Under the pieces are notes generated by a model. The model was not told the origin of the DNA. It did no database searches and saw only the letters and a program-made list of their open reading frames with translations. Positions 1 through 62,337 of a DNA stretch of 64,000 nt are shown piece after piece (the first letter of the stretch is position 1; each line of letters opens with the position of its first letter). Source of the DNA: a bacterium (GTDB lineage Bacteria; Patescibacteriota; Patescibacteriia; Magasanikbacterales; GWA2-37-8). Position numbers and translations under genes: made by a program. Location of the stretch: the NCBI GenBank assembly GCA_043810165.1, contig JBDROJ010000023.1, positions 4,675 to 68,674 on the forward strand, given 5' to 3'.

Positions 1-322
1 TTTTTAAATGCACGATTGAGTTGAAGCTTAAGAAAAATAATATCGAGCCGAGCCAGTGTGTTGGTTGATAATCATAATCCAGGTCTTTAATAATTAGTAC
101 GGCCACTAATAATAAAATTATAGGAAATATGTATCGTACTTGTCCAAAACTGATGGCTAATAGGGCATCAATAAAATGTCCAAGCACGCCAGCCATTTCA
201 AAGAAGCTTAAGGCTGATAAGCCTCCGGCGATAAATAATAATATAGCCAAAATTCCCCGATTAATGTCGGGGTTTAGATTGAGGCGTCCTATCCAATTTG
301 ATTTGCGTCGTCTTTTACCCAT
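1..322 (-). CDS. FtsK/SpoIIIE-family DNA translocase, N-terminal membrane segment (partial, continues past window start)
   Basis: Minus-strand ATG at 322-320 translates to MGKRRRKSNWIGRLNLNPDINRGILAILLFIAGGLSALSFF...: a basic N-terminus followed by several hydrophobic helices, as in FtsK/SpoIIIE. It runs off the edge, so it is absent from the ORF track. Confidence 0.45.
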   Translation of the reverse strand, partial: MGKRRRKSNWIGRLNLNPDINRGILAILLFIAGGLSALSFFEMAGVLGHFIDALLAISFGQVRYIFPIILLLVAVLIIKDLDYDYQPTHWLGSILFFLSFNSIVHLK

Positions 323-396
323 ATTGGGGATATTATATCAAATACAGAACAAATTAACAAATATTTCAGAGTAAAATATTTCAGAGTAAAAAGTAT

Positions 397-433
397 TAAA
401 AAAACCTCCTGATTAAATCCGGAGGTTTTTTCG
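397..433. terminator. bidirectional intrinsic terminator hairpin (aacctcc...ggaggtt flanked by A-run and T-run)
   Basis: Perfect 7-bp stem with A6 on the left and T6 on the right. Sits between convergent minus-strand genes. Confidence 0.6.
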
Positions 434-442
434 AAGTATTTG

Positions 443-538
443 TTAAGCTTCTGGTGTAGCTTCTACTGCCGGTGTTTCTTCTACCGGAGTTTCTGGTGTA
501 GCTTCTACTACTGGCTTATCGCAGTCACAATCACACAT
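443..538 (-). CDS. tiny Cys-Asp / Thr-Pro-Glu repeat peptide MCDCDCDKPVVEATPETPVEETPAVEATPEA (31 aa), hypothetical
   Basis: Hand-translated minus-strand ORF, ATG at 538 and TAA at 445-443. It contains a 19-bp direct nucleotide repeat (451-469 and 491-509). No SD; too short for the ORF track. Confidence 0.2.
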   Translation of the reverse strand: MCDCDCDKPVVEATPETPVEETPAVEATPEA

Positions 539-742
539 AGGTTTGTGTTTAGAAATAAAATGTCAGCCAAGTGTAGCTAACAGTATATATTATAGCATAT
601 TTTGGCAATTTTGTCAAGATTTTGAGGTTTTTAGCCTTACTATTACCAACCATAGGTTGATTGGCAATAGTATGGCCAGGCACGCGTGGTTGCGTGCCTG
701 GCGGATGTGGTTGGATAGTCGGGCTGTTTTGCCCTATATCCA

Positions 743-905
743 GGTACTGCGGTCCTCGGTCGGGTGGCCGTTGAATGGCCACTCTTCCTGGATCTCCAGC
801 CGGGGAGGGGCCTCGTTTGACCGCACCGCCCTGTCGAGAATTTCTCGCAGAGTCAGTGCTTTTTTCTCTTCCCGCGGTGTTGGATTTTCCGTTTTGTCCT
901 GCATC
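743..905 (-). CDS. hypothetical small protein (54 aa) in GC-rich island A
   Basis: Hand-translated MQDKTENPTPREEKKALTLREILDRAVRSNEAPPRLEIQEEWPFNGHPTEDRSTWI, preceded by an aggaaaggaaaaaag purine tract. Same strand as the neighbouring small ORFs. Confidence 0.25.
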
Positions 906-943
906 TTTTTTCCTTTCCGTAGGTGGATTGATAATCGGTTATA

Positions 944-1111
944 TCACACGCGGTTTGCCATGAGCATGTCACGGGACAGGATGTCCTCGTGGGGCGGGCC
1001 CGGGTTGATCGGGGTCATGCCCGGCACCCAGTCACGCTTGTTGCACTGGCAGTTCTGGCTGTTTGTGGCCTTGGTGTTCTGGTTGCGAGCGATTTCTCCG
1101 AACGAGTTCAT
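944..1111 (-). CDS. hypothetical small protein (55 aa, MNSFGEIARNQNTKATNSQNCQCNKRDWVPGMTPINPGPPHEDILSRDMLMANRV)
   Basis: Internal Met of track ORF 944..1207. It has a canonical SD (AAGGAG, 7 nt before the ATG at 1111). The region is GC-rich. Confidence 0.35.
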   Translation of the reverse strand: MNSFGEIARNQNTKATNSQNCQCNKRDWVPGMTPINPGPPHEDILSRDMLMANRV

Positions 1112-1384
1112 AGCACTTCTCCTTTTTAGGGAAATTGGTTGATTCGGCGGATATTGGTGAACGAGAAGATATATTTGATTATATACTCTCTCGTTCACCA
1201 ATATCACGATTTTAAAGAACTAAAAAACCACCTGCGCGGTGGTTAATGATCTATGTAATACGCAAAATCACTAACTCACCGCTGAGTGGTTAATAACAAT
1301 GTTAATAATAACATTATATTGCGATTTTATATATTCCATAGTATTAATATATTAACACAGTGATGGTTTTCGTCAAATGTTAAT

Positions 1385-1393
1385 TGTGGATAA
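1385..1393 (-). other. perfect DnaA box TTATCCACA (reverse complement of tgtggataa)
   Basis: Exact 9-mer. One of five perfect copies in the window. Confidence 0.5.
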
Positions 1394-1403
1394 GTTGAAG
1401 TAT

Positions 1404-1440
1404 TGTTCGGGCCCCCGGCGTCTATCCGGGGGCCCGAACA
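1404..1440. promoter_or_regulatory. 15-bp perfect GC-rich hairpin (tgttcgggcccccgg / ccgggggcccgaaca, 7-nt loop)
   Basis: Read directly from the sequence. Lies between the minus-strand ORFs 1469..1654 and 944..1111. No U-run follows, so it is more likely a processing or stability element than a simple terminator. Confidence 0.5.
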
Positions 1441-1468
1441 GAACCGCGAACATCCCCCTTGCTTGCCT

Positions 1469-1654
1469 CTAGTCTCTCCAGTGATCTGCCCATTTCAGCA
1501 TCTCGCTGGAGAATCTTTCCAATGCCATGGCCTGCGTTTCGATCATCTTGATGATGCTCACCAGGGCAAGCCCGCGTACGGCGTCGCGATCGTCCCTAGC
1601 TCGTGCCAGTTTGGATTGCAGACGCACCATATTGCCGTAGTATAGTTCGGTCAT
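1469..1654 (-). CDS. hypothetical small helical protein (61 aa), first gene of the island A mini-operon
   Basis: Track ORF. SD aggagag 6 nt before the ATG. A consensus sigma70 promoter lies upstream on the minus strand. GC-rich. Confidence 0.45.
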   Translation of the reverse strand: MTELYYGNMVRLQSKLARARDDRDAVRGLALVSIIKMIETQAMALERFSSEMLKWADHWRD

Positions 1655-1681
1655 TCTGTTCTCTCCTAAATATTTTGCTTA

Positions 1682-1709
1682 ATTATATGATTTTTTACAA
1701 AAAAGTCAA
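1682..1709 (-). promoter_or_regulatory. sigma70-type promoter (TTGACT - 16 nt - TATAAT) driving the island A minus-strand ORFs
   Basis: Minus strand reads ttgactttttttgtaaaaaatcatataat. The -35 is the reverse complement of 1704-1709 and the -10 of 1682-1687. Gene start is at 1654. Confidence 0.5.
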
Positions 1710-1728
1710 CTGTTAGATTGTATAATAA

Positions 1729-1737
1729 TTATCCACA
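1729..1737 (+). other. perfect DnaA box TTATCCACA, about 25 bp upstream of the -35 of the island A promoter
   Basis: Exact 9-mer. With the 1385-1393 box it forms an inverted pair flanking gene 1469..1654. Confidence 0.5.
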
Positions 1738-1884
1738 ATCTGATTTGACAGTGATTTTAGCTTGTGTTAATGTATTAATACTATGAATTACAAGATAAAT
1801 AACAGCTACTCCTTTTTCTTTTTTTGGAACCTCTGCTCCGAGGCGTCTTGTTAATGCATAAATAAATTCTTATCAACAAGCAAC

Positions 1885-1908
1885 CTCGGAAAGCGAGGTT
1901 TTTTTAAT
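1885..1908 (+). terminator. intrinsic terminator-like hairpin (aacctcg gaaag cgaggtt + T7)
   Basis: 7-bp stem followed by a T-run. Confidence 0.45.
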
Positions 1909-2031
1909 TTAGCTCTTTGAAACAGTATAAATAGGCGAAAGAAAGCGCGTGATTAAATCCAGTGTTTTCTTTCGCCTATTTACCGAATGTCAGAAAAACC
2001 AGAACAAGGTCGGAAGACCAGGAGGATGATC

Positions 2032-2199
2032 ATGTCACATCTGTATGGTATCACGGCAGATGACGTCTTGGCCGGGCTCAAAAACCTGACCAAACAGTCC
2101 CATGACGACAACCAGGAAAGGAAGGATGATGAGGAGGTAAGTCCTAAGCCCAAGCTGGCCGTCGTGGTTGGCGACTTCTGGTGGCCCCCCGGCTGTTAG
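2032..2199 (+). CDS. hypothetical small protein (55 aa, MSHLYGITADDVLAGLKNL...VVVGDFWWPPGC)
   Basis: Track ORF 1987..2199. Start chosen at the ATG at 2032 because AGGAGG at 2019-2024 sits 7 nt upstream. GC-rich. A hairpin at 2218-2250 follows. Confidence 0.3.
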   Translation: MSHLYGITADDVLAGLKNLTKQSHDDNQERKDDEEVSPKPKLAVVVGDFWWPPGC

Positions 2200-2363
2200 T
2201 CTGGGGTTTCCGTATCTCAGGCCTGTTCCGATGTATTTCGAAGCAGGCCTTCCTTTCAAGTATTTTTGCTAAAGAATATTTAAAAGGGAGAGAGTCAAAA
2301 AACCAAGCTACTTGGTTTTTTTATTGACTAAATTAAAAAAACCAATTATAATTTGGTAATAAT

Positions 2364-2435
2364 GCGGGCGTGGTATAATGGCTATTACTCCACCCTTCCA
2401 AGGTGGTTACGCCGGTTCGATTCCGGTCGCCCGCT
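2364..2435 (+). tRNA. tRNA-Gly (anticodon UCC)
   Basis: Hand-folded cloverleaf: acceptor GCGGGCG/CGCCCGC, anticodon stem CCACC/GGTGG with loop CUUCCAA, T-loop TTCGATT. CCA is not encoded. Confidence 0.85.
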
Positions 2436-2623
2436 CAGGACCGAAAAAGCAGTCTGAAATGAGGCTGTTTTTTGCTTGACTAAGCTTAGAATTCCTAGTT
2501 CGCACAAGGCTTTTTTGACCTCTTCTTTTTCTAGGCTATTTTTAAGAACCAAATATGGTTTTTCCAATTGAATAAAGAGTTTTTTGTCCCTGTAAGTAAA
2601 GTTCTTACCAACCAGTTTTTACG

Positions 2624-2941
2624 GTGCAGTATCCAGTTGCTAAAAGTCTGTATGAAACACAGCTATATTGTGATTTCATTATATATCATCCAGAAAAGCA
2701 CGAGAAGTGTTTAATTATTGAATCTAAGTGGCAACAGTCTGCAGGTTCTGTTGATGAAAAATTTCCTTATCTTGTACTTAATATCAGAGAAAGATATCCG
2801 TGTTCAACTATAGTTGTGTTAGATGGAGGTGGTTACAAAAAAGGGGCGGAGAAGTGGTTAAGGGATCAAATTGATGATAAATTAATCCACATATTTAGTA
2901 TGATGGAATTTCAAAAGTGGAGTAATAGTGAGGAGCTGTAA
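2624..2941 (+). CDS. PD-(D/E)xK-like nuclease-fold small protein (105 aa), possibly a truncated remnant
   Basis: D...ESK motif region (CDFIIYHPEKHEKCLIIESKWQQ) fits the PD-(D/E)xK catalytic pattern. Starts with GTG right after an in-frame TAA. Terminator-like hairpin at 2977-3003. Confidence 0.35.
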   Translation: MQYPVAKSLYETQLYCDFIIYHPEKHEKCLIIESKWQQSAGSVDEKFPYLVLNIRERYPCSTIVVLDGGGYKKGAEKWLRDQIDDKLIHIFSMMEFQKWSNSEEL

Positions 2942-2976
2942 TATATAGTGTGACGAGGGTGGGGGCATATTACGAT

Positions 2977-3005
2977 CAGCGTAAAATATCGCTATACTAA
3001 GCGGT
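2977..3005 (+). terminator. terminator hairpin atatcgct-atacta-agcggtat + T-run
   Basis: 8-bp stem with one G-U pair, followed by ttttatttttc. Same hairpin family as 7650-7672. Confidence 0.45.
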
Positions 3006-3055
3006 ATTTTATTTTTCCCGCAAAAGATGATAGAATTGAGATAATAACTATAATT

Positions 3056-4374: not shown

Positions 4375-5235
4375 ATGTTAGATACTATAAAAGGAATAAT
4401 CTTAGACATAGACGGTGTTATCGTGGGTAGTAAAAAAGGAGTTAACTCCCCCGACCCACATCCTGATGTAATCAAAAGATTAAAACAAATAAAAGAAGGT
4501 GGTATTCCGATAAGTCTTTGTACAGCTAAGCCGTATTTTGCTATTGAAAAAATAGTTAGAGAAGCTAATTTGGATAATGTTCATATTGTTAATGGTGGTG
4601 GAGCAATAATGAATCCAATTACTGGCAAGATAGTCAAAACTCACAGTATCGATCAAACTATTTTAAGAAGTATTTTAGAAATGCTTTTAAAAGAAGATGT
4701 TTATACTGAGTTATATACAGTTGAGGATTATTATATCCAGAAAAGCCAGTATCGACATATTACTGATAAACATACTCATGTTTTACAAAGAGAACCAAAA
4801 GTAGTTGAATCTTTACTAGATGAGATTTCTTCTTTAAAAGTAGTTAGGATATTGGCTGTTACTGAAGACAGAGAAGATAGATATATCTTTGAAGATAAAT
4901 TCAAGCCTTTTACCGACAGTCTAAATCTTGGTTGGGGAGTCCACCCAGTAATCCTTCCTTTACAGTTTGGCGGTATTACTCCTAAAGGTATATCTAAAAG
5001 CCATGGAGCGGTTGAGATTGCGGAGAATTTTGGTGTGTCTCTTAACGATATGCTTGGCGTAGGTGATAGCAAACGTGATTGGGAGTTTATAGGGCAATGC
5101 GGATATGGGGCAGCTATGGGAAACGCCAGTCAAGCTTTAAAGGATTTAGTTTTGACCAAAGAGAAGAGTCGTTCATATATCGGCGGTGACGTTGATGAAA
5201 ATGGTATTTTGGAGATATTGGATTATTTTATTTAA
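4375..5235 (+). CDS. HAD-superfamily hydrolase, Cof-type (HAD-IIB) phosphatase
   Basis: N-terminal ILDIDGV (DxD) motif and C-terminal GVGDSKRD...GYGAAMGNA motif, as in Cof/YbiV phosphatases. Confidence 0.75.
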   Translation: MLDTIKGIILDIDGVIVGSKKGVNSPDPHPDVIKRLKQIKEGGIPISLCTAKPYFAIEKIVREANLDNVHIVNGGGAIMNPITGKIVKTHSIDQTILRSILEMLLKEDVYTELYTVEDYYIQKSQYRHITDKHTHVLQREPKVVESLLDEISSLKVVRILAVTEDREDRYIFEDKFKPFTDSLNLGWGVHPVILPLQFGGITPKGISKSHGAVEIAENFGVSLNDMLGVGDSKRDWEFIGQCGYGAAMGNASQALKDLVLTKEKSRSYIGGDVDENGILEILDYFI

Positions 5236-5245
5236 ACTGACGGGC

Positions 5246-5722
5246 ATGGGAGAAATCACCATAAGACAATACAAGGATTCTGACAAGGATAAGATATGGG
5301 ATTTACATATTAAAGTTCTGGAAGACGCTGGTGCGTTGGCTGATAGTGGGCCATGGGATGATGATTTGAAAAATATACAACATGAGTATATTAGTGGTGG
5401 CGGTACTTTTTTAGTAGGTTTATCAGGTGACGAAATAGTGGTGATGGGAGCCTTAAAGGTTGTAGATAATAATAATGTTGAAATAAAAAGGATGAGAGTG
5501 TTACCAAAATATCAGAGAAAAGGTTTGGGTCAGTTAATGTTGGATAAATTAGAAGAGAAAGCCGTTGGTAGTGGTTATAATCAAATTCAGCTAGACACAA
5601 CAGATAAACAAATAGCAGCTCAAAATTTTTATGTTAAAAATGGATACAAAGAAGTGAGCCGTATTAAAGGAAAAAAGTTTGAAAGCATAATTTACAAAAA
5701 GAATTTAGTGGCTGGTATATAG
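5246..5722 (+). CDS. GNAT-family N-acetyltransferase
   Basis: Track ORF 5186..5722 trimmed to the ATG at 5246 (MGEITIRQYK...). Contains the acetyl-CoA-binding motif RVLPKYQRKGLGQLML. Confidence 0.75.
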   Translation: MGEITIRQYKDSDKDKIWDLHIKVLEDAGALADSGPWDDDLKNIQHEYISGGGTFLVGLSGDEIVVMGALKVVDNNNVEIKRMRVLPKYQRKGLGQLMLDKLEEKAVGSGYNQIQLDTTDKQIAAQNFYVKNGYKEVSRIKGKKFESIIYKKNLVAGI

Positions 5723-5810
5723 TGTGGAAGGGGTGTGTACAAAACTAGACTCACCTAACCTTGCACAAATCCCCAACAATCCCAGTTCGCACGTCCTCCA
5801 CTACCCCGCT
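5714..5810 (+). repeat. intergenic repeat family, copy A (~95 bp; contains the 28-mer cagttcgcacgtcctccactaccccgct)
   Basis: Near-identical to 7543-7634 and shares the perfect 28-mer with 6750-6777. Begins at the stop codon of the GNAT gene and is followed by T7. Confidence 0.8.
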
Positions 5811-6900: not shown

Positions 6901-7419
6901 GTGAATAGAAATATTTTGGTGCAGGATGAGAGAAAGGTAAGACGCCTACTTCATCTTTGTAGACTAATGCAGGCGGTGTCTTTTTCAACCAAAGACATAA
7001 ATCATGAATTAGCTCGTAGAGTTGGGTATAAAAATAAGCATACGCTTGTAAATGCTATACGTCTATCTGCTTCATGGCGAAGTGTTGAGGAATTGGATAA
7101 ATATCCTTTCACCAAACCGAGCGATAGATTTATACTCAATACAGATCCCAAGAAAGATCCTGAGAGTGGGGATTATGTCACCGTACATAACTTTGTATGG
7201 AGAGACGAAGCACTTAGAAAAAGTGGTTTCATAAATGAGGAAGGCCAGCCTCTCATAGAACTACCTATTCCGAGCGAGATTGTTACTCACGCAGAAAGAG
7301 TAGCTGGGTGGTTGTACAAAAAAAGTCCTACTTACGTTTTGAATGCATTAATTGGTAATCCAGCAGAAACATTGAGTTTATTGCATGAAATGCGGAAGAG
7401 AGGTAAAAATGAAAGTTGA
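6901..7419 (+). CDS. hypothetical protein (172 aa), GTG start with GGAGG SD
   Basis: Track ORF. ggaggtgtcagGTG. No recognisable domain. Flanked by repeat copies B and C. Confidence 0.5.
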   Translation: MNRNILVQDERKVRRLLHLCRLMQAVSFSTKDINHELARRVGYKNKHTLVNAIRLSASWRSVEELDKYPFTKPSDRFILNTDPKKDPESGDYVTVHNFVWRDEALRKSGFINEEGQPLIELPIPSEIVTHAERVAGWLYKKSPTYVLNALIGNPAETLSLLHEMRKRGKNES

Positions 7420-7420
7420 G

Positions 7421-7530
7421 GAGGTGTCTGAATGTAAAAAATGGGAGGGCAACAAAGACCCGCCCCATGTCTGGTATCGCCAGCACGGGCGGGCAGACAC
7501 ATTTCCACCTAATCAAGGTGTTTTTTTTTA
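7421..7530 (+). ncRNA. GC-rich nested-stem element plus intrinsic terminator (candidate structured RNA or 3' UTR element)
   Basis: Outer stem gtgtctg(7424-7430)/cagacac(7494-7500). Inner stem cccgccc(7459-7465)/gggcggg(7487-7493) enclosing the hairpin ctgg-tatcg-ccag. Then cacct-aatca-aggtg + T9. GC-rich, unlike its surroundings. Confidence 0.4.
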
Positions 7531-10870: not shown

Positions 10871-12289
10871 TTAAGACAGGGTCTTTTTGGATAGTATCTC
10901 TTTGATTGTCTGCTTAGAAATTATTTTTAGAGCCAAGCCCAGTGTTCCATATATTATCATCCCATAAACAATAGAGACTAATACATGAGGCGATGGAAGG
11001 ATGTAAACCAGATAACCCATGACTGCACTGGAAAAAATTATTTTTAGAAATACTTTGCCAGAAGGCCAGAGTTTGGCGTAATAACAAGCCAGCATCATTA
11101 AGCCCAAGCCCGCATAAACTTGAGAGAAAACTGCTACAATAACCGCTCCCCAAACTCCGTACAAAGGTATTAGAATTATATATGCTGTTAACGATATAAT
11201 TGCATCAGTTACATAAATCCACATGCTTTGGCGTTGTTTTCCAATTGCCAAAGCAATATGGCCGAAGATCATGCCAAAGACAATTCCAAGCATGGCCAAG
11301 GTGAATACGCGCAAGATAATTCCTGAAGAAATAAATTCATGGCCACCAACTAATTTCATAATTGGAGTGGATAAAACCAGTATGCCGACAATCATTGGTA
11401 AGACCATTAAATTTACCAGATCAAAACTCATTTGAAAATATTTTTTAAATTCTTCGGATTTTTTGCTTGCCCAAGCGTGAGTAAGCAATGGCAACATAAT
11501 GCCCATTATCATGGCGATTACTTGTGCAACTATTTCCACTACCCGAAAAGCTGCGCCATACAGGCCCACATCAACCTGGCTGGCATATAGCGGTAAAATT
11601 ACTTTGTCGCTTTGTAAGTAAACCGCATTGAAAACCACTGCAATGGCCACGGGCCACATTTTTTTAAAAATATCTTTGGATATTTTTTTATCTAGACAAA
11701 GTTTAATCCTATCACTGCGCAACCACATATAGCCGGTGTAAATACTGGCAGCCACTGTGATCACAAACATCATGGGCAAGAAGCCGTAACTGCCAATCAT
11801 CATTAATGATAACCCTGCTACAAGTACAAGACGGCTAAGCACTTCAGCAGTAACTTGAATTATCATTTTTAATTTATGCTGATAATAACCTATGAAGACG
11901 TGGTTTAGGGATATAAAAAAGAAGGAGAGGGACAAAACCAATACGCCCATTTTTATGGTGTGAGGATATGGCAAAAATAAGAATATAACCGGTGCTGAAC
12001 CATTAAATATCAAGGCTGTGATCAAGCGCCAAGTAAATAAATTATTAAAAAGTTTTTTCTGGTCATGTTTAGATTCAGACAGCATGCTGGCTGTGACAAC
12101 GGAAAAACCGAAATCACAGAGAATTCCAATGAATAGCAAAAAGCCGGTGGTAGTTACATACCAGCCAAATTGTTCCACGCCTAGATGGCGGGTCATGATG
12201 GCAACAGCCAAAAGACCTAAAAAAGTACTTATGGCTTTGCCGATCAACTGGATCATTGTATTGTGTGCGATTTTTTTGGTGGTGGACAT
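10871..12289 (-). CDS. polysaccharide biosynthesis protein / oligosaccharide flippase (Wzx-like, MOP superfamily)
   Basis: 472 aa, ~12-14 TM helices. The N-terminus (TMIQLIGKAISTFLGLLAVAIMTRHLG) resembles Wzx/PST-family exporters. Confidence 0.7.
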   Translation of the reverse strand: MSTTKKIAHNTMIQLIGKAISTFLGLLAVAIMTRHLGVEQFGWYVTTTGFLLFIGILCDFGFSVVTASMLSESKHDQKKLFNNLFTWRLITALIFNGSAPVIFLFLPYPHTIKMGVLVLSLSFFFISLNHVFIGYYQHKLKMIIQVTAEVLSRLVLVAGLSLMMIGSYGFLPMMFVITVAASIYTGYMWLRSDRIKLCLDKKISKDIFKKMWPVAIAVVFNAVYLQSDKVILPLYASQVDVGLYGAAFRVVEIVAQVIAMIMGIMLPLLTHAWASKKSEEFKKYFQMSFDLVNLMVLPMIVGILVLSTPIMKLVGGHEFISSGIILRVFTLAMLGIVFGMIFGHIALAIGKQRQSMWIYVTDAIISLTAYIILIPLYGVWGAVIVAVFSQVYAGLGLMMLACYYAKLWPSGKVFLKIIFSSAVMGYLVYILPSPHVLVSIVYGMIIYGTLGLALKIISKQTIKEILSKKTLS

Positions 12290-12416
12290 ATTGGTTTCAT
12301 TATAACATCTTTTAGCAGAAAAGTAGAGATTGGTCGTTGACCAAATGTAATTATTATGGTATTAATTTGATTAGATTCCTAGATAACACAACCAATGGTT
12401 TGATAAGGATATAAAG

Positions 12417-12953
12417 ATGACAAGACCTGATGATCTGATTGTTAATACTTGGCCTACAGATACTAGGGTTTGTGTTGATGCAAATGGCGTGGTGCGCGCC
12501 ATCACCCTTAGTCTTATGCCCGGTTTGAGGGACAGAGTTGGCATGGATGCGGATTACGATACCTATCGGCGATTGGGCAAAGATGGGAGGTATCGTAGAG
12601 TGCACAATCTGTACGGGGCCTGCCGTGCTCATCGTTATGCATCTGAATTTGAGTTGAATGATGAACGTCTGTCAGTCCGTGGTATTGAGATATGCAATGA
12701 TTTGGGGGTAAGATTGGTCGGGATTGGCAGTCACACGACAGATGAACGGCTGATCACCGAGATTCTGTACCCAGTTCAACGACAATTGTTGATTCTCAAG
12801 CGCGTCTATGACGATCAAAAAGTCAAAGCGCGTTGTCACTTTGAACGCATGGCCGATCTTAAGGATAGCCGTGGGCGGGATAACCCCGGTGCCAAACGGG
12901 TCAGTGGTGTGGTCGCGCGTGTTGCATGGGATAGAAGGTCGGCAAATATTTGA
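12417..12953 (+). CDS. hypothetical protein (178 aa) in GC-rich island B
   Basis: SD (aagga, 7 nt) before the ATG. Protein-like composition. Overlapping alternative-frame ORFs on both strands make the call uncertain. Confidence 0.35.
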   Translation: MTRPDDLIVNTWPTDTRVCVDANGVVRAITLSLMPGLRDRVGMDADYDTYRRLGKDGRYRRVHNLYGACRAHRYASEFELNDERLSVRGIEICNDLGVRLVGIGSHTTDERLITEILYPVQRQLLILKRVYDDQKVKARCHFERMADLKDSRGRDNPGAKRVSGVVARVAWDRRSANI

Positions 12954-12989
12954 CGCATCCAACCATGGCTTAAGTTCTATGACGAGGCC

Positions 12990-13412
12990 ATGCGTGCCAG
13001 GATCATGCAAATTCAATGGCACTTGGAGCAGGCTCGTGGTGTGTATTCTCAAATCAAGAGTTGGTATTGGCAACGTGGGTATGATAATCGCCTTCAGTTC
13101 AAAGATCGAGACGCCATGCTGGTCAAGCTTCGCTACCACATTAGCCGGCTTAACATCAAGCCATACAGGCGGCATTACTTGCATCTATGGAAAGAAGCTG
13201 AAATCATGCAAAATTGTTCTGGGCATGATTGGTATGATCTTTGGGATATGGCTGACCGCGGTTTTCAATCTGCAGGGTTGATGCTGGCGCGTAAGCGGTT
13301 AGAGTTGGCCAAGATGCATCTGCGACTGGCTGGATTAGGCTCTGCAGTGTATGTAGCCTTGTTACCCACCTGTTTTTTTCTAAGCCTAGTACATATGTAC
13401 GGTACCGGGTAA
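12990..13412 (+). CDS. hypothetical protein (140 aa) with a C-terminal hydrophobic segment, island B
   Basis: gaggcc-ATG SD-like context. GC-rich. Follows the previous ORF after a 36-nt gap. Confidence 0.3.
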   Translation: MRARIMQIQWHLEQARGVYSQIKSWYWQRGYDNRLQFKDRDAMLVKLRYHISRLNIKPYRRHYLHLWKEAEIMQNCSGHDWYDLWDMADRGFQSAGLMLARKRLELAKMHLRLAGLGSAVYVALLPTCFFLSLVHMYGTG

Positions 13413-13523
13413 GCCAGTCCGGGCAACCAAAATTCCAAGGAGGTTGTCACCAGCCTCCGCCATTTGTCATAAATTTTTATGACAAGCGGTTGATGCTGGT
13501 GGCAAAATTTTTTTAGATATCAA

Positions 13524-13556
13524 AAAACACTCGGAGATATTCTTGAGTGTTTTTTA
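13524..13556 (+). terminator. intrinsic terminator (aacactc-ggagatattctt-gagtgtt + T-run)
   Basis: 7-bp stem followed by ttttttattt. Confidence 0.5.
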
Positions 13557-13708
13557 TTTATACGGATTTTGTTTTCTCGGTCTAATACTCCTTATTACAA
13601 AGTACCAAAGAATATTAGCGGACCGAGATAAAGCAAAAACCTTACACCCAATCCGCCTCAACCCTATGTTTTTGTTGAAGTTTTTTGGGCGTGATCCGAG
13701 GGAGTGTT

Positions 13709-14047
13709 TTATTTTTCTACCTCCTCGGACTTGGCCAGCTCGGCGTTGATTTTGGCGGACAGCCATGGAGCCAGCTGATCCACCACGATGTCCTTGGCCA
13801 CTCCGATGACCTCCGGGTAGTGTTGGCTCAGGAATTCCTTGATTTTCTTTCTCACTGTCTCGTACTGGGCTTCACCGCCGGCGTTGCCGTTGTCGGTCAG
13901 GTCCATATCAAATTGCTTTTCAGGCCAGTCAGACTCAGGCTTGTTGTCCACCTGCGCCCAGAAGGTTACTCTGGCCTGTTCTTTTTTTTCTCCGAACTTT
14001 TTGAGCTCAATTTTTTGACTAATTAGAGCTGAAAGTATTGGAATCAT
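13709..14047 (-). CDS. hypothetical acidic protein (112 aa), GC-rich, canonical SD
   Basis: AAGGAG 7 nt before the ATG at 14047. Protein-like sequence. The opposite-strand ORF 13685..14026 is rejected. Confidence 0.5.
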   Translation of the reverse strand: MIPILSALISQKIELKKFGEKKEQARVTFWAQVDNKPESDWPEKQFDMDLTDNGNAGGEAQYETVRKKIKEFLSQHYPEVIGVAKDIVVDQLAPWLSAKINAELAKSEEVEK

Positions 14048-14169
14048 GTTGAATGCTCCTTCACATAGGGTAATTATAGGCTAGCAGAAAAAACAGGTCA
14101 TGTAAAGCCCTGAACTCGGGATCCTGTGGATTAAATAAAATCGTTTTTTGTGTTATACTATTACTTGTT

Positions 14170-16296
14170 ATGAAATTGAATTTTAAATTAAAATTATCAA
14201 TTTGGCTTCTGCCTTTACTGGCTGGTTTTGTGTTGTTAAATTCGGCTAAAGCTAGCGAGTTTACCCCGCCAGAGGCCAAATATTTCAGTTATCAAGCTCG
14301 ATATTATAGCCAATCAATTGAGGATCCTATTACCATGGAAGCCGGCAGTACAAAAGAAGTGGTAGTTAAATTCAAAAATTCCGGGCAAAAGATATGGCCG
14401 ACTGATGGATGGAATTATGTTTCAGTTTATACGGTTAATCCTAATTATGGAGCCAGTGATTTGGCAGATCCAAGCTGGCTAAGCGATTATCATCCCATAT
14501 TGATTAGTAAACAAACTGCGCCCGGAGAAATCGGGGAATTTAAAATTAAATTAAAAGCACCGGACAAAATTGGAGAGTATAAACAAGATTTTAATTTAGC
14601 GGTTGAAGACTCCACTTGGATTAAGGGTGGTTATTTTTTTCTTAAAGTCAAAGTAATTCCGGCCAAGCCAAAATATAATTTTACCAAAGAATTGAATGTG
14701 GGCGATGACGGAGAAGAAGTAAAACAATTACAGTTAAAATTAAAAGAATTGGGTTATTATACTCATTCAGAAATAACCGGATATTATGGTGATTTGACGA
14801 AGCAGGCTGTGGTTGAATTCCAAAAAGCAAATAAATTAGAACCTTATCCAGGGTTTGTAGGTCCTGGCACAAGGGCAATTTTGAATAATATGTCTGACGT
14901 CGGTAAGGTTGAGAAGAAAGAAGCTCAATCGGCTGTTGTCCCCATTTCAACAAGTCAAAAAGACAAAGAGGTTGTGCAATTAAATAATGATTATCAAGCC
15001 GACATTATTGGGATTACAAGCAATCGTATTGAAGTCAAAGGAGGTCAACGAGTCAATTTTAAAGTGATATATAATAATTCCGGTGAAAAAACTTGGAATC
15101 AGTATGTTTTGCGCGAAGCCGGCAGTCAGGCCAGCACCAGTATATCCATAGCCAGCGTAAAAGAAATTAGTTTGGCTGATGAAACTTGGCTGACCGATAA
15201 AAAGGTAGTGAGTGGCAGTGGTGTTATAGCTCCGGAAGATGTTTTACGAGTAGCTTTTAATTTTCGCGCGCCAGCTAAAAAAGGAGTATATATAGCTAGG
15301 TTTGATTTAAATATTGATGGGCATATTTTAAATGGAGGCAGTCTGGAAATTCCTGTGATTGTGACAGAAGATGCGCCAACTAATTATCAAGCTCCGGTTT
15401 TATCCGCTGACCTTAGCAATCGAGATTTAATTAAGGAGCCTGATATTAAAGTAGGATTGTATAGCAGTGAAGATCCGGTCAAAGTAAAATCGCCTGTTAC
15501 TTATTTAATATATTCAGGAGATGAATACCGCGGTTTGTTGGTTCCTAACACCGAAGCGATTTTAAGTTATAGTAACGGGATTTATAAATACAAAAGCGTA
15601 GGCCTTGAATTCACCAGTAATAAGCATTTACGTTTGATGCCCGGGACAGCGGACGGGTATTTTATTCTGCCCGAATATGTGCGCACAGTTTCATGGCGAG
15701 GCGACAAAAGCTTCAATGCTTATCGCGGTATTTTGGAATATATTTACTCTCCGCGTAAAAATATACCATATATTGTAAATGAATTGCCATTGGACGCATA
15801 TGTTGCAGGAATAGCTGAAACTTCAAATGAAGCACATGCTGAATATGCCAAAGCTATTTTGGTGGCGGCTCGTAGTTATGCTTATTACAGTATTAATAAT
15901 GGTACGCCAAAAGACCAGCGTACCTTTGATGTTTATGGTAGCACAGTAGATCAATTATATTTGGGGTATATTTCTGAAACATTGATGCCACGCATAGTGC
16001 GGTCGGCCAAAGATACTTACGGAGAAATGGTAACATATAATCGTGAACCTGTTATTACTCCATATTTTGGCCATTCTGACGGAATTACGCGTACCTGGAA
16101 GCAGGTCTGGGGCGGTAGTGATAAACTTTGGATAAAACAAGTTAATTGCGAATATGACCAAGGACTGAGCATGTATGGCCATGGTGTGGGAATGAGCGCA
16201 CGCGATGCATCTTATCGCGCCGGTAAAGATGGTTGGGATTACAAGAAAATATTAAAATATTATTATTCAGGAGTAGAAGTGGAGAAAATTTATTAG
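14170..16296 (+). CDS. secreted SpoIID/LytB-domain protein with a peptidoglycan-binding (PG_binding_1-like) domain
   Basis: Signal peptide (MKLNFKLKLSIWLLPLLAGFVLLNSAKA). LKLKELGYYTHSEITGYYGDLTKQAVVEFQ is a PG-binding repeat. The C-terminal ~300 aa has SpoIID/LytB motifs (LDAYVAGIAETSNEAHAEYAKAILVAARSYAYY, YGEMVTYNREP). Confidence 0.75.
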   Translation: MKLNFKLKLSIWLLPLLAGFVLLNSAKASEFTPPEAKYFSYQARYYSQSIEDPITMEAGSTKEVVVKFKNSGQKIWPTDGWNYVSVYTVNPNYGASDLADPSWLSDYHPILISKQTAPGEIGEFKIKLKAPDKIGEYKQDFNLAVEDSTWIKGGYFFLKVKVIPAKPKYNFTKELNVGDDGEEVKQLQLKLKELGYYTHSEITGYYGDLTKQAVVEFQKANKLEPYPGFVGPGTRAILNNMSDVGKVEKKEAQSAVVPISTSQKDKEVVQLNNDYQADIIGITSNRIEVKGGQRVNFKVIYNNSGEKTWNQYVLREAGSQASTSISIASVKEISLADETWLTDKKVVSGSGVIAPEDVLRVAFNFRAPAKKGVYIARFDLNIDGHILNGGSLEIPVIVTEDAPTNYQAPVLSADLSNRDLIKEPDIKVGLYSSEDPVKVKSPVTYLIYSGDEYRGLLVPNTEAILSYSNGIYKYKSVGLEFTSNKHLRLMPGTADGYFILPEYVRTVSWRGDKSFNAYRGILEYIYSPRKNIPYIVNELPLDAYVAGIAETSNEAHAEYAKAILVAARSYAYYSINNGTPKDQRTFDVYGSTVDQLYLGYISETLMPRIVRSAKDTYGEMVTYNREPVITPYFGHSDGITRTWKQVWGGSDKLWIKQVNCEYDQGLSMYGHGVGMSARDASYRAGKDGWDYKKILKYYYSGVEVEKIY

Positions 16297-34556: not shown

Positions 34557-34574
34557 AATATAATTTTTTTATTA

Positions 34575-34760
34575 TCTCAGATAAATACCAAGTTTTTATT
34601 GATATGTATCTTAAATTAGTCGAGATAGATATTGATTTATAAAGCGCCAACCGCATCCCGACTGGGTCGGGATGATGTCCGACCAAATGTAGGGCTAAAT
34701 CTTGGCGCAAGTAAATCAATATCTATGAGAATAATTTGAAAACTTGGTATTTATCCGAGA
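34575..34760 (+). ncRNA. 186-bp triply nested inverted-repeat element with a GC-rich apical core (candidate rod-like structured RNA or miniature mobile element)
   Basis: Outer 22-bp inverted repeat (34575-34596 / 34739-34760, 21/22 match). Inner 14-bp inverted repeat (34625-34638 / 34713-34726). Core 7-bp stem gcgccaa/ttggcgc (34644-34650 / 34702-34708) enclosing the hairpin cccgac-tgg-gtcggg. Confidence 0.45.
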
Positions 34761-34771
34761 TATATCCACTT

Positions 34772-47410: not shown

Positions 47411-48118
47411 TTATAGGTTAGTTATTGTTTTTAAAAGTTGAATAGCCTGCATTTTCATTATATCAATTTTACAATCTACCAGCAAATAATGAATGACCGT
47501 GCTTCTGTCTGAAAATATTTTTCTGTAAGTCTCGGAACGATATTCATCAACCAATTTTTTTTGAAATTCCAAGTTTTCAAATATGGCATCATCTTGTTTG
47601 TTATTCCTTTGTCGCAAACGTTCAAAGGCTTGTTCAGCTTGAAGATCTAATAATACTAGATGGTCAGGCGCGTATTTTAAAGCTATTTCATTGCCAGATA
47701 ATTTTTTTAATTCTTCAATTGTCAGACCGTTGTCTTGGGTAGTTTGATAGGCAAAAGTGGTGCTTACTCCTCGGTCTTGGATGATAGTTTTACCTTGCGC
47801 GTGCAAGGGGATTATAAGTTTTTTATATAATTCAAGACGATCAAGCGAATAGGCCATGGCAATTGATTGGGCAGAAAAACTTTTTTTATTATTTATTTTT
47901 TTATCTCTGATATCCAAGCCAGCATGCGTATATGTTGGTTCGCAACTAAAGATCACATCAAATGGCTCTAGTTTTTTGAGTTCAGGATGAGCGTGGTGCT
48001 CAATCCAATATTCTTTTAAATCAAAGATCTTTTTGCCTTGTTCTGTCAGGTATTCTTTCCAAGTATTTAGAATAGTGCTTTTGCCACTGCCGTCAATTCC
48101 ATCTATCATTATGAACAT
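47411..48118 (-). CDS. thymidylate kinase-like P-loop nucleotide kinase
   Basis: P-loop IDGIDGSGKST and a DRGVSTTFAYQ segment resembling the dTMP-kinase DRY region. Placed next to folA and thyA. Confidence 0.55.
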   Translation of the reverse strand: MFIMIDGIDGSGKSTILNTWKEYLTEQGKKIFDLKEYWIEHHAHPELKKLEPFDVIFSCEPTYTHAGLDIRDKKINNKKSFSAQSIAMAYSLDRLELYKKLIIPLHAQGKTIIQDRGVSTTFAYQTTQDNGLTIEELKKLSGNEIALKYAPDHLVLLDLQAEQAFERLRQRNNKQDDAIFENLEFQKKLVDEYRSETYRKIFSDRSTVIHYLLVDCKIDIMKMQAIQLLKTITNL

Positions 48119-48121
48119 AGG

Positions 48122-48592
48122 TTATTTTTTATAGGTTACAAAAGAATATCCGTTATGGTCTTCTCGTTCTACCTCTTTCCAGATGGTCGTGTCAATTTTT
48201 GGAAAAAAGGCATCGCCCTCAACCAGCCCGCGTACATGAGTTATATATAAGGTATCAGCCAGATCAATGGTCTGGGCATAAATTCCAGCGCCACCAATTA
48301 CAAAAATATCTTCGTTTTCATGATCTGCAAATGCTTGTTGGATGTTGTTATACACTTCGGCTCCGTTCGGCACTTGATAGTCGGTACTGCGAGTTATAAC
48401 AATATTTTTTCGTTTTGGAAGAGGCTTGCCCAAATAGCCTAAAATTGATTCAAAAGTTTTGCGTCCCATTAATACGGTTTTTTTGGAAGTTAATTCTTTA
48501 AAATGTTTCAGATCTTCAGGTATATGCCAAGGAAGCTGATTGTTTTTGCCGATGCAATTATTGTCTGCCACGGCCGAAATTAATGCGATCAT
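48122..48592 (-). CDS. folA: dihydrofolate reductase
   Basis: MIALISAVADNNCIGKNNQLPW...GRKTFES DHFR motifs. Confidence 0.88.
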   Translation of the reverse strand: MIALISAVADNNCIGKNNQLPWHIPEDLKHFKELTSKKTVLMGRKTFESILGYLGKPLPKRKNIVITRSTDYQVPNGAEVYNNIQQAFADHENEDIFVIGGAGIYAQTIDLADTLYITHVRGLVEGDAFFPKIDTTIWKEVEREDHNGYSFVTYKK

Positions 48593-48615
48593 AATTATTA
48601 TTTTTTTATCCCAAT

Positions 48616-48713
48616 TTAGTCAGAGAGATACAATACTTCTACGAAACATTCCGCAGATCCGACCGGAGCATGGGCGGGGACGTTGAGGAGAGGTATTGTA
48701 TCTCTCTGACAGG
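48616..48713. repeat. 18-bp perfect inverted repeat (gtcagagagatacaatac / gtattgtatctctctgac; extendable to ~22 bp with wobble pairs) enclosing a GC-rich 48-56 nt core, between thyA and folA
   Basis: Read directly from the sequence. The core ccgcagatccgaccggagcatgggcgggga resembles the cores at 34651-34675 and 7457-7494 by eye. Confidence 0.6.
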
Positions 48714-48717
48714 ATGA

Positions 48718-49590
48718 TTATACAGCAATATCAAATTTAATTCTAGGATAACTTTCATATCCAATTATTTTTGTATCCTGGGCAGTCCAATCAAAAATTG
48801 AAGTAAAGTTTTCTGTGATGATTTGGGGTAGGGGATATTTGTTTGGATCACGGCTTAGTTGTTCTTTTGCGCCGTCTATGTGATTAGAATAGATATGAGT
48901 GTCACCCAAGAATCCGACTAGACGACCTTCTTTAAAACCGGTTTCTTTGGCTAATAAATGTAAGAGAGTGGCGTAGCTGGCAATATTAAAAGGTAAACCT
49001 AGCATGACATCAACCGAACGCTGGTTCCAGAGCAAGTTTAGTTTTTCATTGCTAACAACTACTTGGAATTGAAAATGGCAAGGCGGAAGAGCCATGTCTT
49101 GTAATTGGCAGGGATTCCAAGCTGATACAATCATACGGCGGTCAAATGGATCGGTTTTTAGATTGTGAATTAGTTTTTTTAATTGATCCACGCCTTGGCT
49201 AGTATAATCTGTATCGTAATTTTTGTAATCAGCATTAAAATGCCGCCATTGAAATCCATAAATCGGGCCTAGGTCTCTTTCTTCAGACATTTTCTTTTTA
49301 GTTTCTTGGTCATGACCATAAGGGACTTTTTTGGGACTGCACCATTCATCCCAAATGTGATTTTTATGATCTTTTAACCATTGTTTGTCGGTTATGCCTT
49401 GAATAAAAAATTCTAATTCTGTAGTTATTAAACGAAAAGGCATTTTTTTGGTAGTGAGCAAGGGGAATCCATCAGACATTTCGTGTTCAAATATAACACC
49501 GGCAATGGATTGAGTGCCAGTGCCGGTACGGTCTTGTTTTTTTATTCCCTTATCCAGGATTTTTTCTACTATTTTTAAGTAGTTCAGCAT
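48718..49590 (-). CDS. thyA: thymidylate synthase (ThyA type)
   Basis: Active-site LPPCH motif and GxPFNIASY motif. Confidence 0.92.
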   Translation of the reverse strand: MLNYLKIVEKILDKGIKKQDRTGTGTQSIAGVIFEHEMSDGFPLLTTKKMPFRLITTELEFFIQGITDKQWLKDHKNHIWDEWCSPKKVPYGHDQETKKKMSEERDLGPIYGFQWRHFNADYKNYDTDYTSQGVDQLKKLIHNLKTDPFDRRMIVSAWNPCQLQDMALPPCHFQFQVVVSNEKLNLLWNQRSVDVMLGLPFNIASYATLLHLLAKETGFKEGRLVGFLGDTHIYSNHIDGAKEQLSRDPNKYPLPQIITENFTSIFDWTAQDTKIIGYESYPRIKFDIAV

Positions 49591-62026: not shown

Positions 62027-62195
62027 TTAAGGCACTGTCGCCAAATACCATTTTGACTAAAAATTACATATTTCGGCCATAATTTCTGAAAAATTTTTTA
62101 GCTTAGCTAAGGCTAAACCGTAAAATTTGTTCAAAAATTCTGGCTCAAAATCTAAAATTTTTATTTCAAAAACGTATTTGGCGACAGTGCCTTAA
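62027..62195. repeat. 169-bp element bounded by perfect 22-bp terminal inverted repeats (ttaaggcactgtcgccaaatac / gtatttggcgacagtgccttaa) with an AT-rich interior
   Basis: Read directly from the sequence. MITE-like architecture. The interior contains a TTGACT - 18 nt - CATAAT promoter-like motif. Confidence 0.6.
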
Positions 62196-62307: not shown

Positions 62308-62337
62308 CAAATACCAAGTTCATAAACTTGGTATTTG
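62308..62337. repeat. 13-bp perfect hairpin caaataccaagtt-cataa-aacttggtatttg sharing its 12-mer arms with the outer inverted repeat of the 34575-34760 element
   Basis: aaataccaagtt and aacttggtattt occur at both loci. Could also act as the Fic terminator. Confidence 0.55.

Follow-up and report, generated by a model that had tools for sequence, protein, structure and literature searches.

An orphan long hairpin between thyA and folA in a Patescibacteria genome, one of the broad group of small intergenic elements that form hairpins

Introduction

REP units are 20–40 nt long, imperfect and highly repeated. Where they act as stabilisers, a hairpin located between two cistrons can protect the upstream message from 3′-exonucleases, and differential expression of the cistrons can result. 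A helix of 18–22 bp is a canonical substrate of RNase III as well as a barrier to 3′-exonucleases. Longer hairpin-forming elements are found among the MITE-like repeats, for which we considered the Correia elements (CREE, NEMIS) of Neisseria, ERIC, RUP, BOX and the Rickettsia palindromic elements. Correia elements that are present in transcripts bind RNase III and are either cleaved or protected (PMC2649163); MITE-like hairpin repeats are also the subject of two reviews (PMC2229807 and PMC10969869). In the IVS of rRNA the two ends are complementary and pair into a helix of about 20–28 bp; such stems, of 20-odd bp, serve as cleavage sites of RNase III (PMC4990558).

Here we describe a long hairpin, from here on element A, in the spacer between thyA and folA within a 64-kb (64,000 nt) stretch of Patescibacteria DNA, which is called the window throughout. 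Its host belongs to a poorly studied, genome-reduced lineage in which genes are otherwise very tightly spaced. Like the MITE-like repeats, element A is about 100 bp long and non-coding, has terminal inverted repeats around a core, lies in the spacer between co-directional genes and folds as a long RNA hairpin. Unlike them, it was found in one copy, it combines AT-rich arms with a GC-rich core, which is unusual, and it has no sequence similarity to repeats in the collections searched. With the rRNA IVS it shares complementary termini that can form a long stem, but it is placed in an mRNA spacer instead of a 23S or 16S rRNA helix, the window contains no rRNA, and element A has no ORF. As a stable hairpin between two cistrons it also recalls the REP sequence in malE-malF, from which it differs in being 92 nt long, perfect-stemmed and single copy.

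Operon context of element A

Element A is located within thyA-folA-tmk, a conserved gene block that is encoded on the minus strand of the window. In the direction of transcription, its parts are:

48718-49590, minus strand: thyA, thymidylate synthase (PF00303, Pfam E = 6e-97), the upstream cistron
48711-48717, minus strand: spacer remnant of 7 nt between the thyA stop codon and element A
48619-48710: element A, the thyA-folA hairpin, 92 bp, non-coding
48593-48618, minus strand: folA leader, 26 nt, A-/AT-rich and unstructured, UAAAUUGGGAUAAAAAAAUAAUAAUU-AUG
48122-48592, minus strand: folA, dihydrofolate reductase (PF00186, Pfam E = 2e-54), the downstream cistron
47411-48118, minus strand: tmk, thymidylate kinase (PF02223, Pfam E = 1e-23), the third cistron

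An earlier note on this DNA had let the hairpin occupy the entire thyA-folA spacer. It takes up 92 of the 125 nt, and 7 nt and 26 nt are left over at its two sides. The thyA stop codon and the folA leader are untouched by element A, and the start region of folA lies outside its structure. Across the element, the AUCCU within 48711-48717 could pair with a GGGAU at 48608-48612; this pairing is weak and may be due to chance.

Promoter- and terminator-like sites occurred between 48000 and 49700 at about the rate seen in shuffled sequences, and none of them was convincing on either strand. In the element A region the terminator scan returned nothing beyond a weak internal site, no more than shuffled sequences give, and neither strand has a U-tract after the stem, so that element A does not have the GC-rich hairpin plus U-tract of an intrinsic terminator. 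A promoter made by the element itself (CTGACT, 18 nt, AATAAT; 9/12) was considered and rejected, because such sites are at shuffle expectation; its −10 element would, moreover, put the start of transcription inside folA. There was no transposase among the tested ORFs of the window, and neither an integrase nor a transposase was located near element A. A search of the window for rnc gave no match, a result that is uninformative as the query was an approximate E. coli RNase III sequence.

Anatomy, composition and folding

On the plus strand the layout of the element is ...CCCAATTTA GTCAGAGAGATACAATAC ttct ACGAAACATTCCGCAGATCCGACCGGAGCATGGGCGGGGACGTTGAGG agag GTATTGTATCTCTCTGAC AGGATGA..., with the following parts:

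48619-48636: left arm of a perfect 18-bp inverted repeat, GTCAGAGAGATACAATAC, 39% GC
48637-48640: inner 4-nt extension of the left arm, pairing with 48689-48692 with one T-G
48641-48688: GC-rich core, 48 nt, 62.5% GC
48689-48692: inner 4-nt extension of the right arm
48693-48710: right arm of the perfect 18-bp inverted repeat, GTATTGTATCTCTCTGAC

The perfect 18-bp stem, its possible extension to about 22 bp and the GC-rich core of 48 nt had all been described in the earlier note, and direct inspection of the sequence verified them. The arm pair, which did not appear in the automated repeat listing, was confirmed by direct comparison. The stem is lengthened from 18 to 22 bp by four inward pairs (T-G, T-A, C-G and T-A), which leave the core of 48 nt. 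The T-G pair is a G-U pair in plus-strand RNA only, where 22 contiguous pairs result; because it becomes an A-C mismatch in the minus-strand mRNA, the helix in the mRNA would consist of 18 bp, one mismatch and 3 bp.

The GC content is 0.39 in the arms and 0.59 or 0.625 in the core, depending on whether 56 or 48 nt are counted, compared to 0.18 in the rest of the spacer and 0.37 in the whole window. By composition, the arms are host-like and AT-rich, while the core looks foreign. In the minus-strand, that is mRNA, sense element A folds with −45.4 kcal/mol (z = −7.9 against shuffles); a slightly more stable fold is obtained for the plus strand, which runs antisense to the operon (−51.6 kcal/mol, z = −8.2). 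Pairing within the core is weak and comprises CCGC/GCGG and a small UCC-GACC-GGA hairpin.

Inverted repeats with arms of at least 18 nt were absent from all 40 Markov-simulated sequences of 64 kb, whereas the window has two; with arms of at least 14 nt, nine were found in the window compared to a mean of 0.175 per simulated sequence (n = 40). Even at 3 mismatches, the arm of element A occurs exactly twice in the window, with 0.03 occurrences expected. Element A is real and non-random, far beyond chance.

Comparison with related genomes

The relatives of the window are Patescibacteria, many of them labelled Magasanikbacteria, and the nearest other ThyA is 80% identical. Over 38 adjacent thyA-folA pairs in the fetched relatives, the estimated spacer length has a median of ~5 nt and a range from −4 to 443 nt, with many estimates falling between −4 and 11 nt. 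Most of the fetched relatives have thyA and folA 0–10 nt apart, and judged from this spacing translational coupling of the two genes is plausible there.

The element A hairpin is present in none of the closest relatives by ThyA (77–80% identity; L081-L083 and L085-L087). Of these, L081 (ThyA 80%) and L082/L083 (79%) have the gene order of the window (dUTPase, a large unannotated ORF, thyA, folA, tmk, a membrane protein and gatB), with the block complete in L081 and L082, and their thyA-folA spacers of 85 and 67 nt, respectively, are AT-rich, unstructured and have nothing in common with element A. The spacer measures 5 nt in L085 (79%) and 35 nt in L087 (77%); that of L086 (78%) extends over 132 nt, is AT-rich and folds no better than shuffled sequences (z = −1.7). 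Subtracting element A from the spacer of the window leaves 33 nt at 18% GC, similar to the spacers of these closest relatives. As relatives with the same gene order are devoid of it, element A appears to be a lineage-specific insertion into a short AT-rich spacer. The comparison of thyA-folA spacers across relatives had been proposed as a check in the earlier note, and its outcome, with the hairpin missing from the closest relatives and almost no spacer at all in most syntenic ones, speaks for one of the possibilities raised there, a mini-element inserted into the operon.

Other inserts were found at the same operon in further relatives. The 443-nt thyA-folA spacer of L002 contains a gene for a PF05635 protein (23S rRNA IVS protein, E = 8e-38) at 4877-5302, between inverted repeats of about 15–23 bp. 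Between folA and tmk, L003 (~5370-5800) and L088-L093 have a PF05635 gene whose inverted repeats are related to these. The inverted repeats of these PF05635 elements have the motif GTTCATAGCCAAT / ATTGGCTATGAAC in common. Neither a PF05635 homologue nor the motif GTTCATAGCCAAT was found in the window. The 179-nt thyA-folA spacer of L007 folds into a long hairpin, and the 57-nt spacer of L008 contains a hairpin. The thyA-folA junction has taken other palindromic inserts independently in other lineages. As a further point of likeness to rRNA IVS, the repeat-flanked PF05635 genes, at most putative IVS, reside in the spacers of the same operon.

Other hairpins in the window and an element with the same architecture in Magasanikbacteria

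Seven long inverted repeats are present in the 64-kb window compared to eight in about 690 kb of the other loci, and the genome of the window is prone to palindromic inserts. Besides element A, the following are considered here:

34573-34762: element B, a nested long hairpin (−80 kcal/mol) located between a nif3-like gene and ruvA, whose 215-nt spacer it fills
62027-62195: element D, a 169-bp AT-rich near-palindrome between the gene of a 901-aa secreted-looking protein and a Fic-domain gene

Element B consists of a 24-bp outer stem (96% complementarity), a perfect 15-bp inner stem and a branched core of 56% GC, and had no match in Rfam. At the nif3-like/ruvA junction, L094 has a spacer of 2 nt, next to an upstream gene that is an ortholog with 74% identity, and L095 has one of 41 nt. 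By this sequence comparison element B is apparently a second lineage-specific hairpin insert of the genome. Element D has perfect arms of 22 bp, 37 nt at 86% complementarity, and is 79% self-complementary overall.

Another hairpin element, present in two copies, was found in a related lineage, Candidatus Magasanikbacteria RIFCSPHIGHO2_01_FULL_33_34:

L088 7930-8049 and 9677-9780 (also L003 7430-7549): two-copy hairpin element flanking gatB

Its two copies in L088 are 80% identical and have perfect AT-rich stems of 20–23 bp around a core of 59% GC. At two stem positions both partners differ between the copies (A-U to G-C and G-C to A-U), which keeps the stems perfect; with effectively two sequences, these compensatory changes are suggestive, not statistical. 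A 3′ tail of 23 nt is found in both copies, one of which has a 16-nt deletion of a core hairpin. Element A resembles this element in its perfect AT-rich stem, its GC-rich core and its location in a spacer of the syntenic dTMP/gatB block of a related lineage, but the L003/L088 element has a branched core of two hairpins and the conserved 23-nt 3′ tail, and its sequence is without significant similarity to element A (z ≤ 0.75 against structure-aware shuffles). A cmsearch of the window and 40 loci with the L003/L088 covariance model R1 at E ≤ 10 returned only the training copies and a weak match in L027 (E = 2). Since this model finds neither element A nor element B, what element A has in common with the L003/L088 family is the architecture, not membership.

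Searches for further copies and for known families

Element A is single copy in the window, with no further copies at up to 3 mismatches, and it was absent from 0.75 Mb of related loci. Searches with elements A, B and D by blastn (word size 7) against the window and all loci yielded no further copies. Nothing relevant to element A was found in phage and plasmid collections, and the core 24-mer and the 18-nt arm were without a match in 2.9 M viral contigs. A core 21-mer had one match in the JGI metagenomes (L084), which can be ascribed to chance as it lies inside a GC-rich coding gene and does not extend beyond about 22 nt.

Scanning the whole window with Rfam 15 at the gathering score returned three tRNAs only. 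On 48500-48800, relaxing the threshold to E ≤ 10 added only two chance matches to snoRNAs (E about 5–7), and the four local Rfam E-value scans in the window, this one included, found no RNA family, so that element A matches none of the structured RNAs in Rfam 15. Among the candidates rejected for lack of an Rfam model match were the THF and ZTP riboswitches, SRP, 6S and Y RNA and ribozymes. Features of a hammerhead, of THF/ZTP riboswitches and of tRNA-like, SRP and Y-RNA structures were also sought by eye, with nothing convincing found. Readings of element A as attC, retron, terminator or small ORF were rejected on anatomical grounds.

The earlier note had also reported motifs common to the core and to 34651-34675 and 7457-7494, which would imply a family of three cores. 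Local alignments scored 17–21 against a shuffle maximum of 24–26, and under a null model that keeps the arm/core composition and the palindrome z did not exceed 1.6. Such a family is not supported, and for the covariance search with the three cores that the note had proposed there is no alignable basis. Elements A and B do have CCGCA, the 7-mer TCCGACC and ATG..GGGC in the same order; by a rough estimate, the chance of one common 7-mer between cores of this size is ~0.2–0.4. Homology of element A with elements B, C (7423-7500) and D (62027-62195) or with the L003/L088 element was rejected as not significant. Element A is an orphan without an assignable family that belongs, as to its general kind, to the small hairpin-forming intergenic elements.

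Interpretation of element A

The explanation that we favour, while holding it with as much reserve as conviction, is that element A is a single-copy, lineage-specific, MITE-/IVS-like palindromic insertion which is co-transcribed with the operon and forms an intercistronic dsRNA helix. The palindromic insert is the natural reading in view of the other inserts at this junction, the other elements in the window and the Magasanikbacteria element with the same anatomy. With respect to MITEs, element A has the terminal inverted repeats (18 bp perfect, 22 bp with one T-G), and it measures 92 bp without an ORF. It was found once in the 64-kb window and not in the other data searched, and its flanks (...AATTTA/element/AGGATG... 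on the plus strand) have a single A in common, which is not a target-site duplication. As there is no target-site duplication of more than 1 nt and neither a transposase nor a parent IS was seen, the MITE label is to be understood as an analogy only.

According to this explanation, a palindrome of 92 bp would have landed in the AT-rich thyA-folA spacer and would since be transcribed together with thyA-folA-tmk. That element A is part of this message is suggested by the lack of promoter and terminator signals of its own. Within the mRNA it would form the 18–22 bp helix, and this helix, by analogy to the systems above, would likely be a target of RNase III or a barrier to decay. If left uncleaved, the hairpin could block 3′-exonucleases and stabilise the upstream thyA segment; cleaved or uncleaved, it might uncouple the expression of thyA and folA, either physically or kinetically. 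An RNase III processing site and a differential-decay element, the other two possibilities raised in the earlier note, would be plausible consequences of such a helix in the transcript. Because close relatives lack it, the host most probably tolerates element A and does not depend on it. The difference in composition between AT-rich arms and GC-rich core, together with the perfect stem, could instead reflect selection on an RNA.

A small structured RNA of a novel class is a rival explanation. Its functional part would be the GC-rich core, mounted on a long AT-rich stalk, and it would be released from the operon message by RNase III cutting in the stalk or be transcribed separately from the plus strand. 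Islands of high GC content within AT-rich intergenic sequence are a classical hallmark of structured RNAs, and the core with 62% GC in a window of 37% fits this description, as do element B and the L003/L088 element, in which perfect AT-rich stems likewise carry GC-rich branched cores. The two compensatory stem changes and the strand-specific 23-nt tail of the L088 pair point in the same direction, as do three G-U pairs in the plus strand of element A that correspond to mismatches in the minus strand. The perfect stem and the more stable plus-strand fold also count in its favour, and a functional RNA might be of either sense. Nevertheless, we regard a small RNA as unlikely: homologues that could reveal conservation or covariation were absent from the collections searched, Rfam returned no family even at E ≤ 10, the covariance model of the L088 family did not match, promoters and terminators were unconvincing on both strands with counts at shuffle expectation, the closest relatives are without the element, and the core on its own folds weakly. 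An in-place-evolved cis-regulatory hairpin for folA, such as a sensor of a metabolite, a protein or temperature, an attenuator or a terminator, would be favoured by the position exactly between two cistrons of one pathway and by the very stable fold (−45 kcal/mol in the mRNA sense). It is very unlikely in our assessment, since there is no U-tract on either strand and only a weak internal terminator site, no match to a THF, ZTP or other riboswitch model, and a folA start region that is not involved in the structure. The spacers of relatives, moreover, vary from about 0 to 132 nt and are unstructured wherever they are long, and a perfect 18-bp repeat enclosing a core of foreign composition is unlike the product of gradual evolution in place.

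A function at the DNA level, as an attC-like recombination or integration site, the footprint of a transposon, a cruciform or a protein-binding palindrome, might be suspected from the perfect inverted repeat and from the neighbouring folA, since dfr/folA genes are frequent integron cassettes. Yet the attC core sites (RYYYAAC / GTTRRRY) are absent from the stem base, and element A has neither the R''/R' sites at an imperfect stem base nor a cassette array, the order thyA-folA-tmk being conserved chromosomal synteny. Spacers of 56 nt between the arms disfavour cruciform extrusion, and 56 nt is the distance in element A. Together with the lack of an integrase or transposase nearby, these features make a DNA-level site highly improbable. 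Still less credence is due to an artefact of assembly or amplification, a chimeric palindrome in a metagenome-assembled contig. The source is indeed a MAG contig, the core is compositionally foreign, and its sole match elsewhere is 21 nt in an unrelated GC-rich contig. However, the insert is internal and precisely bounded between two intact genes, it does not repeat neighbouring sequence in inverted form, the same contig has other clean hairpin inserts, and comparable elements exist in related genomes from independent assemblies.

Taken as the palindromic insertion that we favour, element A would be one more small palindromic DNA in a permissive operon spacer and, as it stands, matters little. 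It has a modest value as a marker, indicating that this Patescibacteria lineage tolerates, and has repeatedly acquired, hairpin insertions in its dTMP-synthesis operon and elsewhere, by which the tight thyA-folA spacing of most relatives is broken. A bolder proposal, which we consider distinctly doubtful, is that elements A and B and the two-copy Magasanikbacteria element represent an undescribed class in Patescibacteria, in which GC-rich, structured RNA cores on long and perfect AT-rich stalks would be excised from operon mRNAs by RNase III. Members of such a class would colonise intercistronic spacers and sometimes, as in the case of element B, the loop of a pre-existing hairpin. If true, the class would be the mRNA counterpart of the rRNA IVS, releasing a small RNA or simply leaving separated cistrons; an RNase III-processed family of the stalk-plus-core type would carry the concept of the IVS over from rRNA to mRNA.

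Additional observations

Several further features were noticed in the window and in the loci used for comparison. The PF05635 (bAvd-like) genes of the relatives are inserted between cistrons of the thyA-folA-tmk operon and not in rRNA, and the ORF-less spacer hairpin of L008 (...GGTTCAGGGTTCTAGGGCCCTATGAACC...) resembles the repeats of the PF05635 elements. The gatB-upstream copy of the two-copy element is nearly invariant across seven loci of the same species (L003 and L088-L093), apart from a single SNP in L090.

The outer stem of element B is formed by the 12-mer AAATACCAAGTT and its complement, 146 nt apart at 34583-34594 and 34741-34752; at 62309-62336 the same pair makes a small hairpin whose loop has 4 nt. 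In the window this 12-mer has six matches at up to 1 mismatch (four of them exact) compared to 1.1 expected. As the pair also occurs as a separate small hairpin, element B looks as though a repeated palindrome had received an insert in its loop. At 100-135 of L095, a perfect palindrome, CCCAGTACCGTACGGTACTGGG, lies in the nif3-like/ruvA spacer, with a near-copy, CCTGTACCATACGGTA, in front of it; this is another small hairpin at the junction which element B fills in the window.

Two hairpins lie just downstream of the ORF 6901-7419, at 7423-7530. The first is GC-rich (GACCCGCCC...GGGCGGGC, with GTGTCTG/CAGACAC closing it), and the second, CACCTAATCAAGGTGTTTTTTTTT, has the clean form of a terminator, including a T-run; together they may constitute a 3′-UTR element or a small RNA. 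A segment of ~1.9 kb at 12290-14170 stands out by having only short ORFs, which overlap on both strands, and by its GC content (0.455 over 12001-14000 against about 0.37). Three tested ORFs from it had no Pfam match and the segment had none in Rfam; a degraded foreign gene and a large RNA are both conceivable. The region 1-3050 is ORF-poor and GC-rich (0.42 over 1-2000, with local islands above 60%), contains strong hairpins at 675-702, 1150-1205, 1404-1440 and 1928-1982 and adjoins a tRNA at 2364-2435. Its ORF 543-1142 had no match in Pfam and the region had none in Rfam; possibly the region is foreign DNA that has integrated.

In L040 (4001-5110), on a contig labelled Woesearchaeota, the match to thyA covers 1110 nt compared to 870 nt and its alignment is split, which suggests an internal insertion such as an intron or an intein, or a frameshift. 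Many of the contigs with the thyA-folA block among L001-L040 bear labels such as Gammaproteobacteria, Woesearchaeota or Gemmatimonadota, which are probably taxonomic mislabels of MAGs, or else point to horizontally shared thyA.
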